In this document: one piece after another, positions 35,327 through 52,265 of the stretch
Numbering within the stretch: position 1 is the first letter of the stretch
Layout of the letters: every line of letters starts with the position of its first letter
Source: an uncultured virus (IMG/VR IMGVR_UViG_3300009605_000022)
Lineage: Duplodnaviria; Heunggongvirae; Uroviricota; Caudoviricetes
DNA: 64,000 nucleotides
Direction: 5' to 3' (one strand)
IMG/VR virus record: IMGVR_UViG_3300009605_000022
Notes under the pieces: generated by a model
The model's input: only the letters and a program-made list of their open reading frames with translations
Told to the model about the DNA's origin: nothing
The model's database searches: none
Program-made: the position numbers and the translations under genes

Positions 35327-36016
35327 TTAAATCCATTTTTGTTGCGCCTTTGTTACGTTTAATACATTGTTCTCACAAAGTTTAATAGCATAAGTCTTTA
35401 AGTCTTTTTCATCATAGGCTGAGAAGTTATCCTTTAATAATAAATATAAATCTATCATGTTCATAGGGTCTCCATGTCTATCTTTTAAAAACGTTGCTAT
35501 CTCTTCGGGAACTACCCATACTACTGTTTGTTCTTCAGAATTGTATAGGCTTGGTCTGAACTTCTCCTTTACAAACATATCCATATCTGTTTGTGTTAAG
35601 TGGTATCCGTTCACCGCACTACCAAATGAGGTCATTAGCTTAGTTCTCTTTACCTCGAACACAAAGTCAGTAGGGTTGGAAGTGTTTTCTATACACTTAG
35701 CAAATACCTTCTGAAATAATGTATGTGTTACGAGAGGAACTGAGAGGTATGAAACTTTAACTTTACCCCCACCTGCATATTCTGAGGTAGGCATATAGAT
35801 TCCATACGTAAACTCCTGTATCTTAGGAGTATTATTAGCACAGTATACACAGTCACCTTCTTGAGCCCAACACTTAACCCTTCTTCTTGCTGAGGGGTTC
35901 CAGTGCCGAACTCTATGAATAGGTGCTATGAATGCGAACTGAGCTAACGCCGTCATATCGTCCTCTAACCAGACTCTATCACTCTTTTGCGATTGTATCC
36001 AATCACTGTAGCTCAT
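35327..36016 (-). CDS. Putative ssDNA-binding protein (gp32-like Zn motif)
   Basis: HW...C.....DCVYC motif; next to the ATPase. Confidence 0.4.
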   Translation of the reverse strand: MSYSDWIQSQKSDRVWLEDDMTALAQFAFIAPIHRVRHWNPSARRRVKCWAQEGDCVYCANNTPKIQEFTYGIYMPTSEYAGGGKVKVSYLSVPLVTHTLFQKVFAKCIENTSNPTDFVFEVKRTKLMTSFGSAVNGYHLTQTDMDMFVKEKFRPSLYNSEEQTVVWVVPEEIATFLKDRHGDPMNMIDLYLLLKDNFSAYDEKDLKTYAIKLCENNVLNVTKAQQKWI

Positions 36017-46447: not shown

Positions 46448-46741
46448 TCATTGTTTCCTCACTGTAACAAACATTGCGTTCTTAGTTCGGTTGTTTACTT
46501 TCTGAGCTAACCATGCCTCAGTTCCTATCTCTGCCATATAGTCAACAGTGTCTTTGTATACTCCGAACGTTAGACATTGATGTGGCTTAGGTGCATGACG
46601 GAAATACTTCTCAGTTCGAGCAATCCTTTTAGCACGTATCTTACTACCGTCTCGGTTGGCTGTCCTGAGAGACACTTGTTGTAGTTGGGCTGGGCTTAGT
46701 TGTTGTAGCATTTCAGCTATTGAGTCGATGTTACTTTTCAT
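46448..46741 (-). CDS. Hypothetical protein
   Basis: TATA-like element at about 46766-46777. Confidence 0.6.
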   Translation of the reverse strand: MKSNIDSIAEMLQQLSPAQLQQVSLRTANRDGSKIRAKRIARTEKYFRHAPKPHQCLTFGVYKDTVDYMAEIGTEAWLAQKVNNRTKNAMFVTVRKQ

Positions 46742-46789
46742 CTGATACTACATAGTAAACGCCCTTTATAAGCTTTTCCCTAAATCGGG

Positions 46790-47325
46790 GAGACCAACTG
46801 AGATTAACGTGTTTAAAACTATACTGAGAGCTATCCCTATATTAACTATATTAAGATATGGCTCTATTATGCAATATAGAGATATAATAAAAATGCTTTA
46901 TAGAGCTTGATTTGTAGAGCTATGATATACTGAGCAATGCTTAACTGAGCATGTTTTATTAAGCAATGCATAACTATGCTTATAATATATACACCCCCCT
47001 ACTATATAATACTTTGTCTCAGTTCACACATAACTGATAAAAGTTTTTTAAAACAGGCTCTACTAAGCAATTTTCTCATGCTCAGTTAGCGACAATGAAC
47101 TTAAACTGGTTTTAGTTTGGTATAGCTCAACTGAGAAGTGCTCAATTACTCACTGAGGGGGCCTGATAGAGCTTGCTCTTTTCTCACCCTGCCCTACAGA
47201 TAAACTGAGAGCTTGTTTTCTCACCCTCGGTTAGCGAGCTGAGAGATTTTTCTCATCGAGCCCTATAAAGCTAGGCTGAGAGAAGCTAAAAATAAAAAGA
47301 GAACTTAATAGAGCTGAGCTGAGAA
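46790..47325. repeat. Non-coding region with many short repeats (CTGAG, TAGAGC, TTTTCTCA); candidate origin or control region
   Basis: AGAGCTTG..TTTTCTCACCCT at 47168-47190 and 47208-47227; about a dozen CTGAG/CTCAG copies; AT-rich left half. Confidence 0.5.
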
Positions 47326-47326
47326 A

Positions 47327-47345
47327 TCCATACGTGTGGAAAAAT
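47327..47345. repeat. Module-boundary palindrome, copy 1
   Basis: TCCATACGTGTGGAAAAAT. Confidence 0.75.
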
Positions 47346-47375
47346 AAAAAAAGTTAGTTTATATAGGGGTGGGTA

Positions 47376-47575
47376 GGAGGATTTAATGTATACCTCCAAA
47401 CGCATTATGCCACTACATAGTAGATGCGTTACCAGTCTAACCTTCCTCCAGCAGTTGCTTCTCGGTTGGTTAATCCTGTGCCTTAGTCCGTGGCGGACTT
47501 GTTCGGCCATACCCGATTACGGAAGAGCTACTTCCATAAATGTAAAAGTGGGCAGTTTTCTGAGTTGCCCAGCTG
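47376..47575 (+). ncRNA. Candidate ~200-nt structured RNA (strand uncertain, + favoured)
   Basis: Five consecutive hairpins; plus-strand TTTATATA at 47358-47365; stem 47549-47571 extends by G-U pairs only on +. Confidence 0.4.
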
Positions 47576-47589
47576 CTTGATGTATTGAC

Positions 47590-47922
47590 TTACTTAAGCA
47601 ATCCTGCTTTCTTCATAGCTTTTTTCAATTCAGCTTCGGTAATTTTACCAGACTGAAGTGAAGCGACTACGGAATCAACAGATACTCCTTTGCGTTTTGC
47701 TCCTCTGAATGCTTGTAACTCGTTTGTGCGAGATGCAACCATTGAGGCGAACTTGTCTTCGTTCCTAAGCACATCTGATATTGCTATCATTGTGTCGTAT
47801 TTTACCCCTGTCGGGTAACGCTTACTTTCTCCGACGCCCTCGAATCCGAGATGGTCCAGTAAACCTGAAACCACCTTTTCATCTTTAGGTGCCCAGAGAT
47901 AATCCATGTTTGCTTTACTCAT
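47590..47922 (-). CDS. Hypothetical early protein
   Basis: AGGAG RBS; type-A promoter upstream. Confidence 0.7.
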   Translation of the reverse strand: MSKANMDYLWAPKDEKVVSGLLDHLGFEGVGESKRYPTGVKYDTMIAISDVLRNEDKFASMVASRTNELQAFRGAKRKGVSVDSVVASLQSGKITEAELKKAMKKAGLLK

Positions 47923-47935
47923 GTTTTCTCCTTAC

Positions 47936-47964
47936 TTACCAATAGAGTGTCCCTATTTAAGTTT
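47936..47964 (-). promoter_or_regulatory. Type-A promoter, copy 1
   Basis: (+) TTACCAATAGAGTGTCCCTATTTAAGTTT. Confidence 0.75.
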
Positions 47965-48202
47965 AACCCCTGCTGACTATTTGTCTGAGGTGCATTCTGT
48001 CAAAGATGTGAGGATTAGATAATCTCACGGACTCTGCTATCTCAAGATGCTCACCGCGGGAACCTGTTCCTACTGGTATCATCTCTTTATACATTCCATA
48101 CTTACCGTATGGGGTCGTGCCGACTTCAACAAAGTAGTCGACTGTCTGATTTTGACCGGCTCTCCAAGGAAGAGCTGTCTTAGTTTGAGTTGCTTTGCTC
48201 AT
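47963..48202 (-). CDS. Hypothetical early protein, probably leaderless
   Basis: ATG about 22 nt from the type-B TATA box. Confidence 0.7.
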   Translation of the reverse strand: MSKATQTKTALPWRAGQNQTVDYFVEVGTTPYGKYGMYKEMIPVGTGSRGEHLEIAESVRLSNPHIFDRMHLRQIVSRG

Positions 48203-48206
48203 AATA

Positions 48207-48255
48207 TACCAAGGACACCACCCTATATAAAGCTTTTTTCACCCGAGTGGAAAAA
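48207..48255 (-). promoter_or_regulatory. Type-B promoter plus boundary palindrome, copy 2
   Basis: (+) TACCAA..CTATATAAAGCTTTTTTCACCCGAGTGGAAAAA. Confidence 0.8.
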
Positions 48256-48260
48256 TAAAA

Positions 48261-48690
48261 AATGCAACTTCACCTGAGGCTCCGCGTGTTTAAGAAACAC
48301 CTCAGGGAGCGGTTGCCCGAGAGCACATTAATCTGCATAGGTAGTGCTACACGTGGGGTGTGACCTGTCGCCAGTCAAAAGGATATCCTTCACGAAAGGC
48401 GAACACAAGCATGAACAGGTGTGATACTCATAGCTTAACGGATTGATTCTATAACAGGGATAAAGTGATTCAAAGGTGATACATAATGTTAGCTACACGT
48501 CGTTCTAAAACTTAGATGCGCATCGACCGGAAAGGGATTGGGTCAGCACTGTTCAGCTAGTATTTGTTATGTGAATGTCTCGTTGTTGCGTATGGTTCGA
48601 TTTTGTTTCCTTGTCAGGTCACGTGTTACAGCTGATAACTGTAAGTGAGCGGGTGCAATACTATTTTGCTATTTTCATCTCCCCGCTCTG
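48261..48690 (-). ncRNA. Candidate ~430-nt structured ncRNA with its own promoter and U-rich terminator
   Basis: No minus-strand ORF in the track; starts directly under the type-A promoter; long-range GUGACCUG/CAGGUCAC helix; nested 3' helices; ends at UUUUUUAUUUUU. Confidence 0.7.
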
Positions 48691-48721
48691 TATTACCAAT
48701 AGAGTGTCTCTATATAAGCTT
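48691..48721 (-). promoter_or_regulatory. Type-A promoter, copy 2
   Basis: (+) TATTACCAATAGAGTGTCTCTATATAAGCTT. Confidence 0.8.
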
Positions 48722-48946
48722 TTCTCCCATGGACTTTATCTCACTGACATACACGTCACCGAGTTCAAAAGAACCATAAGTAAAATCTGATTTGACAGCG
48801 CAGAACCAACGGGCGTGTGGGTTCTTCGCTTCATTCTCAGCGTTTTGGTATTTCTTTAATACTCTCCATTCAAAGCCACGTGGGCCAGTCCAGACCTCGT
48901 AAGGGTCATCTGTTTTGCGGGTTTTACCGCACATGTTTTTAGTCAT
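48710..48946 (-). CDS. Conserved-looking small viral protein, probably leaderless
   Basis: KTRK.DDPY...EWRVLKKYQ...ARWFCAVKS...ELGDVY. Confidence 0.75.
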   Translation of the reverse strand: MTKNMCGKTRKTDDPYEVWTGPRGFEWRVLKKYQNAENEAKNPHARWFCAVKSDFTYGSFELGDVYVSEIKSMGEKLI

Positions 48947-48950
48947 ACAA

Positions 48951-48998
48951 TACCAAGGGTGGGGGTCTATATAAAGCTTTTTTCACACGAGTGGAAAA
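48951..48998 (-). promoter_or_regulatory. Type-B promoter plus boundary palindrome, copy 3
   Basis: (+) TACCAA..CTATATAAAGCTTTTTTCACACGAGTGGAAAA. Confidence 0.8.
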
Positions 48999-49389
48999 CC
49001 TCGAGGCGGGGGCAAAGGCCATAGCCCCCTAGAGGTGTCAAAACTGCTTACGAAATACGTCTGGCCTTTTTGATAATCTTATTCGTTCTCTTCTTCCAAC
49101 CTCGTTCTAAGTAGGTATCGTAGCTCATAAGCCACACCCACAGCAAGGTGCATCTTCACACCCGCAGAGGACAATATAGTCTCCTGCTTCACTTATACCA
49201 GAGATGACCATGTCATCTAAAATATCTAAGATGCTCTTCATTTGGTCAACCCCAGCTTGATTGCTTTTAGTTGGTCCAATACTCCGGAATCAATTTTATT
49301 CTTTTGTATGGTTCTGCGTGCTACTCTCCTGAAGCGGAAAGCGTTTCTGGTGTCTTGTATTGTTTGTTCTAACATGTTTATCTCCTATC

Positions 49390-49554
49390 TTACCATACTC
49401 CACAGGCTATATAAAACCTTTCATCATCGAACCGTGGGTTCTCTGCTTCATACTTTTTTGCGAAGTCTTTTGCTACCTGCATCTTTACCGATGCCGGCCA
49501 TCCTGTTGTCCTTATTAGGTCTGCTGTTGCTTGAAAATCTTTTCTTGTGTTCAT
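49390..49554 (-). CDS. Small protein (TRKDF...A.I...NPRFD..RF..AC pattern)
   Basis: GAGG RBS; start at MNTRKDF; followed by further short ORFs down to about 49050. Confidence 0.7.
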   Translation of the reverse strand: MNTRKDFQATADLIRTTGWPASVKMQVAKDFAKKYEAENPRFDDERFYIACGVW

Positions 49555-49569
49555 ATTTATTTCCTCGTA

Positions 49570-49600
49570 TATTACCAATAGGGTGTCCCTATATAAGCTT
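49570..49600 (-). promoter_or_regulatory. Type-A promoter, copy 3
   Basis: (+) TATTACCAATAGGGTGTCCCTATATAAGCTT, identical to 50320-50350. Confidence 0.8.
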
Positions 49601-49742
49601 ACCGGTGCCTCCACTTTCTCATTCTCACCAGCATACTTTGAGTTTGTAAACTCCTGCTGTAGAACTCTTCGAATTCCATTTTACCACCATATGATTTATA
49701 GTGATGCCAATTTGCTAACCTTTGTGTTTCGTATTTAGTCAT
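49599..49742 (-). CDS. 47-aa hypothetical protein, probably leaderless
   Basis: Start at MTKYETQ directly under the type-B promoter. Confidence 0.6.
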   Translation of the reverse strand: MTKYETQRLANWHHYKSYGGKMEFEEFYSRSLQTQSMLVRMRKWRHR

Positions 49743-49746
49743 AGTA

Positions 49747-49796
49747 TACCAACGGGTGTGTCTATATAAAGCTTTTTTCACACGTGTGGAAAAGCT
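49747..49796 (-). promoter_or_regulatory. Type-B promoter plus boundary palindrome, copy 4
   Basis: (+) TACCAA..CTATATAAAGCTTTTTTCACACGTGTGGAAAAGCT. Confidence 0.8.
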
Positions 49797-50132
49797 GGCG
49801 CCCCGCCGACTTAAAAGAAGCCGGTTATGGGGGTAACCTGCGTTTAGCTGTCCTACCATTATAGGCTGGCTTACTAAACTGAAGATGCGTCGCTACGTTT
49901 AACGCTCGGGCGGACTTATGCCTAAGGCCCTTCGCCATCACTTGTCAGGCGTCTCCTATTGTCCACGATGCTGGACAGTTTATTAGACTGACTCATACAC
50001 TTGCCCTTTCCGTTGGGGGAACCTACTCCTTCGGCCTCCTTCTTACAGTGTTCGTGGACTCACGGAACATAATCTCTTTTGGGCTGAGTGTAATACTATT
50101 TTACTATTTTCATCGTCTCAGCCCGTTAGAGG
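49797..50132 (-). ncRNA. Candidate ~335-nt structured ncRNA
   Basis: More GC-rich than the genome; no credible ORF; begins with the same hairpin motif as 48647-48688; several hairpins; G-U pair in CCGGCUU/AAGUCGG supports the minus strand. Confidence 0.65.
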
Positions 50133-50140
50133 TGCGTGGT

Positions 50141-50209
50141 TTATAATTTTCTTGTTGCGTATGATATTCCTACTAACCATGTTAGTAAGCTACTTTGGTA
50201 TGTGTTCAT
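50141..50209 (-). CDS. 22-aa microprotein
   Basis: MNTYQSSLLTWLVGISYATRKL; GGAGG RBS; TAATG coupling. Confidence 0.45.
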   Translation of the reverse strand: MNTYQSSLLTWLVGISYATRKL

Positions 50210-50307
50210 TAGTCGCCTCCTTTTCTTATTAAGTATTGATAGTGAAATGGTCTACCGTTTTTCTTAAAGTCTTTTGCTAGCTTTGCCCAGTGTTGTCTTC
50301 GTGTCAT
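50209..50307 (-). CDS. 32-aa basic microprotein
   Basis: MTRRQHWAKLAK...; AGAGG RBS under the type-A promoter. Confidence 0.55.
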   Translation of the reverse strand: MTRRQHWAKLAKDFKKNGRPFHYQYLIRKGGD

Positions 50308-50319
50308 GTTTTTCCTCTG

Positions 50320-50350
50320 TATTACCAATAGGGTGTCCCTATATAAGCTT
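50320..50350 (-). promoter_or_regulatory. Type-A promoter, copy 4
   Basis: (+) TATTACCAATAGGGTGTCCCTATATAAGCTT. Confidence 0.8.
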
Positions 50351-50441
50351 ATCCCCTGAACTCCGTCCAGCACTCCCAACATAGTTGAGAGTTGAAAAGT
50401 GTATAAGTCATGCATGCTGATTTATTACATTCTTCGCACAT
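50349..50441 (-). CDS. 30-aa Zn-finger microprotein
   Basis: MCEECNKSACMTYTLFNSQLCWECWTEFRG. Confidence 0.6.
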   Translation of the reverse strand: MCEECNKSACMTYTLFNSQLCWECWTEFRG

Positions 50442-50442
50442 T

Positions 50443-50559
50443 TTATTCCTCACCGGTCCAAAATGTTGCGAACATTTCAGTATCGCAATCTTCACATAGT
50501 CCACCGAATAATTCGATATCTTCCAAGCCACAGTCTTCACATTGTTGTTTTAATTCCAT
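50443..50559 (-). CDS. 38-aa Zn-finger microprotein (not in ORF track)
   Basis: MELKQQCEDCGLEDIELFGGLCEDCDTEMFATFWTGEE; GAGG RBS. Confidence 0.6.
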   Translation of the reverse strand: MELKQQCEDCGLEDIELFGGLCEDCDTEMFATFWTGEE

Positions 50560-50687
50560 TTGTATTCCTCGCTAATATACCAACGCGAGGTAACATATAT
50601 TACTTTGGGTGGGGCCTATCGTCGTGAACCTCAAAATCCTAAACAGGGGTATATAAGGGGGCCAATCCCGCTCGCGTTTTTTGGTGA

Positions 50688-50715
50688 AATTTTTTTTCAC
50701 ACGTGTGGAAAAATT
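50688..50715. repeat. Module-boundary palindrome, copy 5
   Basis: AA-T-run-CACACGTGTGGAAAAATT. Confidence 0.8.
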
Positions 50716-50762
50716 GCTGGGGGTTTATATACCCCCTTTTCCGGCGAATGGACTATATATAC

Positions 50763-50903
50763 TTATAGCTGTTCGTGAATCTGGTCAACGATGTCATGAA
50801 GTATGTCTAACATATAACCACGAGTTAATACGTCATTATGACCATACTTATTTTTTTGCATCGAACCGATGTCAACTTTATCTAAATCAATTTCGAATTT
50901 CAT
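50763..50903 (-). CDS. 46-aa hypothetical protein
   Basis: MKFEIDLDKVDIG...; GGAGG RBS; ATGA overlap. Confidence 0.6.
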   Translation of the reverse strand: MKFEIDLDKVDIGSMQKNKYGHNDVLTRGYMLDILHDIVDQIHEQL

Positions 50904-51127
50904 TTTTCTACCTCCTTTATTTTTCCTGCCATTTCTTGAACCTCTTTTAGAACATACTTTGCAAAGTTATTCCAATCGGTTTTATTTCTTGAATCTTTTG
51001 CTAATGAATCCCATGCCATTATAGTGGACCTGAGATTATTGTAAGCGTTAGCTTCGTTTCTGATTTGCTCATTGCTTAATGCTGGGGCTTCTTCTGCCCT
51101 CTTGATGTAGGTGATTAACATGCTCAT
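50900..51127 (-). CDS. Hypothetical protein
   Basis: Operon packing. Confidence 0.6.
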   Translation of the reverse strand: MSMLITYIKRAEEAPALSNEQIRNEANAYNNLRSTIMAWDSLAKDSRNKTDWNNFAKYVLKEVQEMAGKIKEVEK

Positions 51128-51129
51128 GT

Positions 51130-51342
51130 TTACACCCCCAATTCATAGAAGCAGTCAAGGCATACCTTGTAGCCTCTTGCCCTGTGGGCTTGAACTGCAT
51201 CGTTGCAACACTCGCACATATCTTGTGCGTTGTTTAATTCTTTCATGCCTTGCTCGATGGCCATATCTAATTGGTGCATCATGCTGTCTAACTCGGTTAT
51301 TATTTCGTTGTTGTTCATATTTGTTTCCTCTGTATTACTCAT
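51130..51342 (-). CDS. Small Zn-finger protein (start may be at MNNNE)
   Basis: CECC...CLDC. Confidence 0.55.
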   Translation of the reverse strand: MSNTEETNMNNNEIITELDSMMHQLDMAIEQGMKELNNAQDMCECCNDAVQAHRARGYKVCLDCFYELGV

Positions 51343-51418
51343 AGCGACCTACTTAATAAAGGTTTCGTTGGGAGGGGTATACCCCCCCTACCCTAGGCCC
51401 CTACTGGGGGTGCCCCCC

Positions 51419-51733
51419 TTAGGCCCTCCTGTGCCCAGTGTTTGCCATACCTTGACATTCTGGCTCAGAGCCATATTGTCGGTAGTGTTCAGCAACCAAA
51501 GAAGCTTCATGTTCTAAAGCTTCCCATGGGTTTGAAAATTCTTTCAATACTATCATGGATACATCATGACCTTTTTTAGGCCTGTGTTTACTAAGTCTTG
51601 ACTGGGGGTCTTGAGTTAGTCCGTAATAGATTGCATCCTTATCTATTCCTTGTGTATAATCGACGTCAAAGAAGTGATAACTTGTCTTTTCTGTCTGTCT
51701 GGCTAGTTTGTATATATAGTAGTTGTTGTTCAT
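51419..51733 (-). CDS. GIY-YIG nuclease family protein
   Basis: YIY...YYGLT..P..RLSKH...ALEHE. Confidence 0.75.
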   Translation of the reverse strand: MNNNYYIYKLARQTEKTSYHFFDVDYTQGIDKDAIYYGLTQDPQSRLSKHRPKKGHDVSMIVLKEFSNPWEALEHEASLVAEHYRQYGSEPECQGMANTGHRRA

Positions 51734-51824: not shown

Positions 51825-51902
51825 AAAAAAACGCAAAAAAAATGACAAAAAAATGCAAAAAATCGCGCAAAAAATGCGCTAAAAAAACGCCAAAAACGCG
51901 CC
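51825..51902. repeat. Seven helically phased A-tracts (intrinsically bent DNA)
   Basis: A5-A8 tracts start at 51825, 51835, 51847, 51857, 51869, 51881 and 51892. Confidence 0.8.
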
Positions 51903-52265
51903 AATGTCGCGCGCTATAAATTTATTAAAAATCGCGCTAATGTATATATTATCTTATTATATTATCTTTTTCAGTATACCCCCGTCTAAAAAAATCATGC
52001 CCCCACCTAAACACACAGGCGCCTAGGGGTTTAAACAAATCGAGCCATTTTTTGAAAGCACTAAATAAGAATATACTATAAGCACTGTGTTTAAACTATA
52101 TATCGCTAAGTATCTCTTGCATTATTAATCAAGCTCTTTTAACCATGCTCTATTAGTCTCTCTTACGCGCGTAGGATAGCCAGTGAACTGAGAAGCAAGC
52201 TCTACATACCACAACTCTTATATACTCTGAGGTAGTATAATTATATACAAAAAAGGAAACTAACT

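Follow-up and report, generated by a model that had tools for sequence, protein, structure and literature searches.

The hairpin and its two copies

What is the role of a short hairpin that can be read twice from the minus strand of the same viral DNA? The hairpin lies in a stretch of 64,000 nucleotides (nt) from an uncultured marine virus of the Caudoviricetes (IMG/VR record IMGVR_UViG_3300009605_000022), which is called the window below. Both minus-strand copies described by the first-pass annotation of this DNA are present where it had placed them, copy 1 at 48647-48688 and copy 2 at 50081-50124, and they reach 67.1 and 68.9 bits, respectively, with a covariance model that found no third copy across the 64-kb window. 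The core pattern shared by both (GATGAAAATAGYAAAATAGTATTRC) has two matches in the window and none in 100 shuffles, that is, none would be expected by chance. The hairpin is a compact, strand-specific and strongly selected structured RNA element, and it is a portable module that flanks stable RNA genes of the early region.

Both window copies have what we call the simple form. It consists of a variable closing stem, P1, mostly of 6-9 base pairs (bp), an A-rich 5′ strand of 12 nt (AA-GAUGAAAAUA), and an inner stem, P2, of 4 bp (G-C, C-G or U-A, A-U and A-U) that carries the loop AAUAGUA, after which one nucleotide leads back to P1. In copy 1, the P1 strands GAGCGGG (48682-48688) and CCCGCTC (48647-48653) enclose, with the linkers GA on the 5′ side and A on the 3′ side, the core GATGAAAATAGCAAAATAGTATTGC (48655-48679), inside which P2 is GCAA/UUGC with the loop AAUAGUA. 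In copy 2, the P1 strands are GGGCTGAG (50117-50124) and CTCAGCCC (50081-50088), or GGGCUGAG/CUCAGCCC in RNA letters, and the linkers AC and A flank the core GATGAAAATAGTAAAATAGTATTAC (50090-50114), with GUAA/UUAC as P2. The two cores differ at only two positions (C/U and G/A), which pair with each other. With the outer stem included, the two hairpins have fold energies of -12.7 and -13.1 kcal/mol (z of -3.4 and -4.4); the 4-bp inner stem is not predicted by the single-sequence minimum-energy fold of either.

Covariation, strand and conservation of the core

An exact scan of IMG/VR returned 30 stretches with the hairpin, and a slightly degenerate scan of marine metagenome contigs returned at least 125. 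The pooled set, the window included, holds at least 117 distinct instances of 155 nt, which form 77 clusters by their downstream 40 nt (clustering was by ungapped identity, and related sequences are non-independent events); counts out of 117 refer to the instances listed. The varying P2 pair is C-G in 81 of them and U-A in 36, and it is never mixed, with a search pattern that permitted all four combinations. The compensatory change that the first-pass annotation had seen between the two window copies is thus borne out on a larger set. At the position of copy 2, relatives have GCAA/UUGC, or the three-way-junction form described below instead. As copy 2 of the window has U-A where its closest orthologues have C-G, the double change must have arisen more than once. 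When the 4 inner-stem positions were left free in the scan, 21 of the 116 matches listed had a fully paired inner stem, and all of these were GCAA/UUGC or GUAA/UUAC.

The closing stem gives the same picture. P1 sequences are many and unrelated, with the pairing retained, and 7 of the 8 pairs compared among 18 simple-form sequences have changed on both sides. Simple-form P1 cells are paired in 92.6% of cases versus 75.4% in shuffled sets (0 of 500 reach the observed value) and 37-48% when the partner strand is slid. Moreover, the five inner P1 pairs (585 cells in the 117 instances) include 22 G-U and only 2 A-C combinations, which indicates that the minus strand acts as RNA. The hairpin is also co-directional with manA RNA in 6 of 6 loci and with nearby tRNA genes in 3 of 4, and it lies on the same strand as a tiny open reading frame (ORF) in every locus looked at. 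The G-U bias, together with the strand shared with manA, tRNA and the tiny ORF, identifies the minus-strand transcript as the selected molecule.

In 23 distinct instances, the hairpin takes a three-way-junction form, in which an extra hairpin, P1a, is inserted between the 5′ strand of P1 and the core. The insert consists of GAAC, P1a and then GACCUAAAAA; P1a is optional and has a conserved loop, usually UAUCGAC, with the flanks GGGGAAC and GACCUAAAAA. Compensatory changes are found at 4 of 7 P1 pairs and 7 of 8 P1a pairs in these 23 sequences, with 94.3% of cells paired. Consequently, the view that the hairpin is a selected RNA module, already put forward from the two window copies, is upheld by covariation in all three stems (P1, P1a and P2), by the tolerance of G-U and not of A-C, and by the shared direction with manA and most tRNAs.

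The core, by contrast with the variable P1, is nearly invariant over its 25 nt. It was searched with positions 1-5 free, with positions 6-10 and 18-19 free, and with the inner stem free, and among the listed instances only positions 1, 6, 12 with 24, and 19 vary; the variants seen in hairpin-bearing matches are G1A (once), A6U, C12U with G24A, and G19A. Positions 6 and 19 are A/G in 106 of the 117 instances, A/A in 6, U/A in 5 and U/G in none, and U6/A19 and related variants occur in at least five P1 contexts. The finding of U6 only with A19 suggests that the A-rich 5′ strand touches the P2 loop, or that an alternative pairing exists.

About 40% of the clusters have, in addition, a short single-stranded tail of the form (A)CCUUAY on the 3′ side of P1, of which ACUUAC behind copy 1 (48641-48646, minus strand) is a member. 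Of the 77 clusters, 33 have CTTA no more than 12 nt behind P1, versus 4.5 in shuffles and 6-7 in flank controls, and 25 have CCTTA, versus 1.0 in shuffles. Three interpretations of this tail were tried and rejected. The first was a likeness to boxA of rRNA operon (rrn) leaders (GCUCACUUACAGUUAUCAG in the window versus UGCUCUUUAACAAUUUAUCAG in E. coli, rrsH boxA, L381), which was dropped because the 77 tails have a mean score of 4.68 versus 4.53 when shuffled, and because no boxA-like site was found in 47-52 kb of the window. The second was a sigma-70 -10 box: the tail fits TAYAWT, but there is no -35 element at a usable spacing, and in locus L015 the start would fall inside a tRNA-Glu. The third was pairing with P1 or the core, for which neither a complement nor covariation was seen.

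Carriers of the hairpin and known RNA families

By their sequences, all carriers belong to a single uncultured lineage of marine tailed phages. Relatives of the window terminase, found in 13 of the 30 IMG/VR loci with their 10-kb flanks, have 67-78% protein identity to it, and relatives of its exonuclease, found in 23 of the 30, have 48-91%. With such protein divergence, a neutral 25-mer would not have stayed unchanged. The gene content of the window, according to PHROGs and Pfam, includes a tape-measure protein, a family B DNA polymerase, a class II ribonucleotide reductase, MazG, Hsp20 and CobS/CobT-like proteins, and no cultured relative closer than 24% terminase identity to the window was found. 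Contigs hold few copies of the hairpin: 27 of the 30 IMG/VR loci have one and 3 have two. In two loci (L013 and L029), a simple-form and a junction-form copy stand in tandem, 66 nt apart and 91 nt from start to start. The core is absent from 185,579 prokaryote species, each represented by one genome. Among the 50,697 deposited phage records of INPHARED, neither the 4.9-kb region nor the 53-nt hairpin has a blastn match, a search in which the low-complexity filter may mask the A-rich core; and the nearest virus record compared (G001) gave no covariance-model match, in a record that is 81% complete and may lack the region.

The first-pass annotation could not assign the hairpin to a known RNA family, and Rfam gave no match to it either, in the window or in the loci of 20 relatives. 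In Rfam 15, the sole match of the window at the gathering score is manA RNA, and the hairpins and the ORF-free segments behind them are unmatched. When the expectation value (E) was relaxed to 5 for 46500-51500, the two hairpins and the two segments were still free of any match, and at E up to 0.1 the 20 relatives' loci have manA and tRNA matches only. For instance, the hammerhead, twister, pistol and hatchet models match neither the window region nor the 20 loci at these respective thresholds. Literature searches aimed at the core sequence and at new classes of phage ribozymes gave no description of it in the papers covered.

Features of particular families are lacking as well. The loop, AAUAGUA, has 7 nt and is part of an internal region of 26 nt; it is not the GNRA-like pentaloop on the short stem of a lambda-type nut boxB, to which an arginine-rich N peptide binds. 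The terminator scan lists no intrinsic terminator at either window hairpin, the tails of which read ACUUACAG and AAAAGAGA. ARAGORN finds no tRNA gene in the window, and the tRNA-Glu matches in relatives lie beside the hairpin and not on it. In its working, the hairpin probably resembles the RNA signals of phage leaders and spacers, such as put and nut sites or tRNA-adjacent ribozymes, yet it fails the tested features of each named family.

Settings of the hairpin and neighbouring RNAs

Each window copy is followed by an ORF-free segment, and the first-pass annotation held that these were structured regions of 330-430 nt headed by the hairpin. Segment 1 has about 390 nt (48646 to 48258, with the terminator counted) and segment 2 about 290 nt (50080 to 49790), and no sense-strand ORF of at least 30 amino acids (aa) was found in the body of either. 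A listed 86-aa frame does extend over the final 60 nt of segment 2, but it runs through a part where relatives have large indels. On covariation, both segments are new structured RNAs. The first contains the uncatalogued Y RNA (48317-48625, minus strand, about 310 nt), for which Alifold with 8 relatives gives 78 pairs, 21 of them with compensatory changes, and which is closed by an 8-bp helix of GUGACCUG (48615-48622) with CAGGUCAC (48360-48367). The second is the uncatalogued X1 RNA (49797-50080, minus strand), with 67 pairs in 11 sequences, 31 of them with compensatory changes; it contains the hairpin GCC-UGACAAGUGAU-GGC, and its indels in relatives are not multiples of three. The ORF-free and structured character of both segments therefore stands on the missing body ORF and on covariation, and not on folding energy, which in single sequences is not significant (z of -1.4 for Y and -0.6 for X1).

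A further uncatalogued RNA, X2, contains CGCGGUUGGAAGCCCGUGGUUAGC, adjoins tRNA-Glu(UUC) in relatives and has no Rfam match. X1 (49797-50080) and X2 share the hairpin GCC-UGACAAGNNAU-GGC-GAAG (relatives L003, L008, L016 and L318).

The surroundings of the hairpin were classed with our own patterns and a purpose-built manA profile, metagenome flanks being at most 450 nt long. Upstream, the 117 instances have the tiny ORF MN(K/T)YQSSLLTWLVGISYATRKL (34), manA RNA (18, in 15 of the 77 clusters), a promoter-like box (16), X2 RNA (4) or an unclassed sequence (45). Downstream they have X1 (20), X2 (14), Y (11), manA (3), tRNA-Glu (2) or an unclassed sequence (67). manA is thus the commonest RNA directly upstream, and there it is fused to the hairpin, with P1 beginning 0-5 nt past the 3′ end of manA. 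The hairpin also stands 5-25 nt ahead of a terminator-like hairpin in three loci (L019, L261 and L268), 10-55 nt ahead of a short ORF in four (L004, L006, L023 and L297), and, elsewhere, 15 nt ahead of tRNA-Glu. Its settings, then, include the borders between the tiny ORF and X1, between manA and X2, and between the promoter-like box and Y. The order of these modules is shuffled between phages (manA-hairpin-X2-tRNA in L310 versus ORFs-X2-hairpin-tRNA in L318), and simple and junction forms interchange at the junction of the tiny ORF with X1. Consequently, the notion that the hairpin heads long non-coding RNA (ncRNA) segments describes both window copies, each of which precedes an ORF-free structured RNA, but this is only one of several settings in relatives.

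manA RNA (RF01745; Weinberg et al. 2010, PMC2864571) shares its habitat and its clusters with the hairpin. The hairpin nevertheless lies outside the manA model, which ends before P1, and some hairpins, the two of the window among them, have no manA next to them. The manA RNA of the window itself (47366-47539, minus strand; 64.6 bits versus a gathering score of 55.2) stands after a 110-aa ORF and has no hairpin behind it.

Possible roles of the hairpin

The reading that we place first, as a tentative choice that may well prove wrong, is that the hairpin acts in leaders or spacers as a module for RNA maturation, either by cleaving itself or as the handle of a dedicated nuclease. It would be a portable part of early transcripts bearing stable ncRNAs (manA, X, Y and tRNA-Glu), would mark a site at which the precursor is cut, and would not be kept in the mature RNAs. 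The cut could be made by the hairpin itself, as a small self-cleaving ribozyme, or by a dedicated nuclease that uses it as a handle, and either route would set the ends of the neighbouring RNAs. This reading is placed first because of the constrained core, the fusion to manA and a hint from the end of Y. Twenty-five invariant nucleotides, an optional peripheral helix and the coupling of positions 6 and 19 are what would be expected of a catalytic or tightly bound core and not of a loose RNase site. Two further observations fit an element that is removed while defining the ends of its neighbours: the hairpin is closely joined to the 3′ end of manA, and there is a weak hint that Y starts 6-22 nt past the hairpin. 

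That hint comes from RNA-library contigs. Contigs of four RNA libraries, from four studies, cover Y RNA, which is the only part of a 3.1-kb stretch common to all four. At one end of Y, the X15 and X17 contigs break off at 48624/48625 without a loose end, where X16 passes into adapter; at the other end, X16 and X17 stop at 48316-48319. An adapter-flanked fragment (X18) begins at 48641, right past ACUUA. The contig ends 6-22 nt to the 3′ side of copy 1 are thus a weak hint of a cut. The hairpin itself (48647-48688) is almost without cover in the X15-X18 contigs, and from such thin cover no inference is drawn.

Leader and spacer signals of rRNA and tRNA operons, such as RNase III stems and tRNA 'punctuation', offer a comparison. 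Like these signals, the hairpin is co-transcribed with stable RNAs and, by the contig hint, would be absent from the mature RNA. They are, in contrast, loosely conserved duplexes or true tRNAs, whereas the hairpin has a 25-nt invariant core and is no tRNA according to ARAGORN.

Several observations weigh against a role in maturation or narrow it. Contigs can show neither the ends nor the levels of RNAs, and a contig from the RNA library X17 in one relative (record 17) bridges the tiny ORF, the hairpin and the downstream RNA, which means that uncut molecules, or contaminating DNA, exist. The junction of X2 with the tRNA in L310 has no hairpin, like other RNA-RNA junctions in the same clusters; together with the one or two copies per contig, such junctions indicate that the hairpin is not a general punctuation. 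A site for a host RNase would not need 25 invariant nucleotides, which narrows the reading to a ribozyme or a dedicated nuclease, and no dedicated nuclease for the hairpin was identified. Gene co-occurrence in 31 records (the 30 IMG/VR loci and the window) was uninformative on a protein partner: the records share most genes, and with all carriers in one phage lineage it cannot identify one. Finally, the spacing of the tail from the hairpin ranges from 0 to 11 nt, and in three further clusters another hairpin is inserted, with a CACUUAY tail found only after it, some 35 nt downstream; both are a poor fit to a tail that docks into a catalytic core.

Within the maturation reading, the more specific proposal of a new class of small self-cleaving ribozyme, with a minimal 42-nt form and a three-way-junction form, is quite unlikely. 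Such a ribozyme would excise stable ncRNAs with exact ends from early transcripts, among them the cage-forming manA and two uncatalogued structured RNAs. The hairpin resembles small self-cleaving ribozymes (hammerhead, twister, pistol, hatchet and theta) in its length (42-90 nt), in closing helices that covary freely around a core that does not change, in a peripheral helix that may be present or not, in the variety of its ncRNA contexts, tRNA-adjacent ones included, and in occasional tandem copies. Theta ribozymes, for instance, are reportedly similar to those of hepatitis delta virus and lie next to phage tRNAs. The hairpin, by contrast, matches no Rfam ribozyme model, and the order of the hammerhead core presumably does not fit the strands of the junction form.

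The next explanation in order, possible if rather unlikely, is a processive antitermination signal of the put or nut kind, in which RNA polymerase would become resistant to Rho and downstream intrinsic terminators through the nascent hairpin, with or without the help of a small phage protein. The put RNAs of phage HK022 and the nut sites of lambdoid phages (boxA plus boxB) are short structured RNAs in early phage leaders, and the hairpin is like them in being an early-leader structured RNA with one or two copies per genome, upstream of terminators, with stems that vary and unpaired nucleotides that are conserved. The opening 2-3.5 kb of the early leftward region hold both window copies, copy 1 directly after a promoter-like box and copy 2 after the stop codons of two tiny ORFs, and each is followed by an untranslated RNA and then by a terminator-like hairpin. 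The three loci with a terminator-like hairpin 5-25 nt behind the element, and the lack of an rrn-type boxA at 47-52 kb of the window, also fit. Moreover, the unit of copy 2 is opened by a conserved basic ORF of 32 aa that starts MTRRQHWAKLAK; in the window and in 6 of the 30 relatives' loci (7 of 31 records), some 95-100 nt separate it from the hairpin downstream, and it may resemble the arginine-rich motifs of N proteins. This pattern is, however, found in only 10 of 31 records, in 3 of which the ORF is 221-1003 nt away, and related small ORFs are on the other strand in some relatives. There is no match to put or nut in sequence or structure, the loop differs from the nut pentaloop as described above, and the tail is no nearer the E. 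coli boxA than are shuffles. A tight fusion to the 3′ end of another RNA, manA, and an optional third helix would likewise be unexpected of a nut site.

Alternatively, and unlikely in our estimate, the hairpin could be a free, stable small RNA of about 45-90 nt, processed out like a tRNA, and it would then bind a conserved host protein in trans, as an aptamer or as its decoy. As a variant, it might remain joined to a scaffold RNA, for example manA, which forms multimeric cages according to a preprint. The invariant core would fit a conserved target, and the hairpin behaves as an independent module, with an order relative to manA, X2 and tRNA that varies between phages and with the tandem copies of L013 and L029. 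P1 is most often of 7-8 bp, and ACC follows within 2 nt in 31 of the 117 instances. The junction form starts with UAGGGGAAC, which is identical to helix 45 of E. coli 16S rRNA (L382), and the tail CACCUUA resembles the 16S 3′ end CACCUCCUUA. This likeness is kept as a lead only; a 9-nt match to rRNA is not rare, and the simple form does not have it. There is no sign of a stable small product, a kind of RNA that would escape contigs and standard libraries.

That the hairpin is a riboswitch that senses a ligand, or else a site in duplex DNA (activator box, origin or recombination site) based on the direct repeat AAAATAG, is very unlikely. The combination of variable stems and a highly conserved core is aptamer-like, but no consistent gene or expression platform lies downstream, where X1, X2 and Y RNAs, tRNA, manA, terminators or unrelated short ORFs are found instead; such varied contexts argue against a riboswitch. 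As for a DNA site, the core does hold the direct repeat AAAATAG-N-AAAATAG, and the tail fits the -10-like TAYAWT, but duplex DNA would not explain the covariation of the stems or the excess of G-U over A-C (22 to 2), and the -10 reading has the difficulty in L015 given above.

Least probable is the translated minigene AUG AAA AUA GYA AAA UAG suggested by the first-pass annotation, which would trap or engage ribosomes: every listed instance has the AUG and the in-frame stop, and G19A turns UAG into UAA, still a stop, at positions that the search patterns fixed or limited, but there is no synonymous third-position change with positions 6-10 free, the sole frequent codon change (GCA to GUA, in codon 4) is always matched by a covarying change outside the frame, and the purine-rich stretch 2-3 nt before the AUG lies inside P1, is not conserved as a Shine-Dalgarno sequence and is missing from the junction form, where ACCUAAAAAGAUG stands instead.

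Other features of the region

Between copy 1 and the body of Y there is a leader hairpin, UUACAG-UUAUCAG-CUGUAA (48626-48644, minus strand), that covaries in relatives (C-G to U-A and A-U to G-C). After Y, the minus strand has a terminator-like hairpin, CUCCCUGAGG...CCUCAGG followed by a U-run (48251-48309), the stem of which also covaries in relatives. Directly upstream of copy 1 is the promoter-like repeat AAGCUUAUAUAGAGACACUCUAUUGGUAAUAC (48689-48729, minus strand), which belongs to the repeat families D2 and D3, with 4-5 copies between 47924 and 50358. The promoter-like box AAGCTTATATAGRGACACYCTATTGGTAATA is repeated on the minus strand at 47924-47972, 48681-48729, 49560-49608 and 50310-50358; it has an inner palindrome, ATAGGG-ACA-CCCTAT, with a compensatory change in one copy (ATAGAG-ACA-CTCTAT).

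Another unit is repeated, in 3-4 occurrences, at 48203-48257, 48951-49001, 49743-49796 and 50679-50715 (minus strand). It consists of a terminator-adjacent palindrome, TTTTCCAC-N4-GTG(G)AAAA, then AAGCTTTATATAG...TTGGTATAnT and, directly after it, ATG; the ATG of three different small genes stands in this way at a fixed distance, without a Shine-Dalgarno sequence.

Upstream of copy 2, a tiny conserved hydrophobic ORF, MNTYQSSLLTWLVGISYATRKL (50141-50209, minus strand), has its stop codon 16 nt before the hairpin and shows synonymous differences in relatives; it is the tiny ORF that was classed upstream in 34 of the 117 instances. It is overlapped by the tiny basic ORF MTRRQHWAKLAKDFKKNGRPFHYQYLIRKGGD (about 50209-50307, minus strand), and relatives have related small basic ORFs that end in ...TRR(A/S)(T/K)WM(R/K).

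Downstream of manA, an ORF-poor stretch of 580 nt (46780-47360, minus strand) contains CTCAG 11 times and its reverse complement twice. This field resembles an iteron-type array and is possibly an origin or a field for regulator binding. A 229-aa ORF (35327-36016, minus strand) has a weak match, at E of 3e-4 and under the curated cut-off, to the palm domain of poly(A)-polymerase-type nucleotidyltransferases, and its product could act on the 3′ ends of RNAs. At 51825-51903, A-rich direct repeats (units AAAAAAACGC / AAAAAATGCGC) lie where the gene blocks switch between leftward and rightward.

Significance

With more than 100 natural variants, three covarying helices and an invariant core of 25 nt, the hairpin is a clean candidate for an RNA family. 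The early region that it marks in abundant ocean phages is rich in RNAs: it contains manA, an orphan RNA for which cage formation is reported, together with two further uncatalogued structured RNAs. If it is self-cleaving, it would constitute a new and very small ribozyme class. In any case, its role, be it cutting, antitermination or that of a decoy, would, once learned, provide a first experimental hold on why these phages make many stable RNAs.

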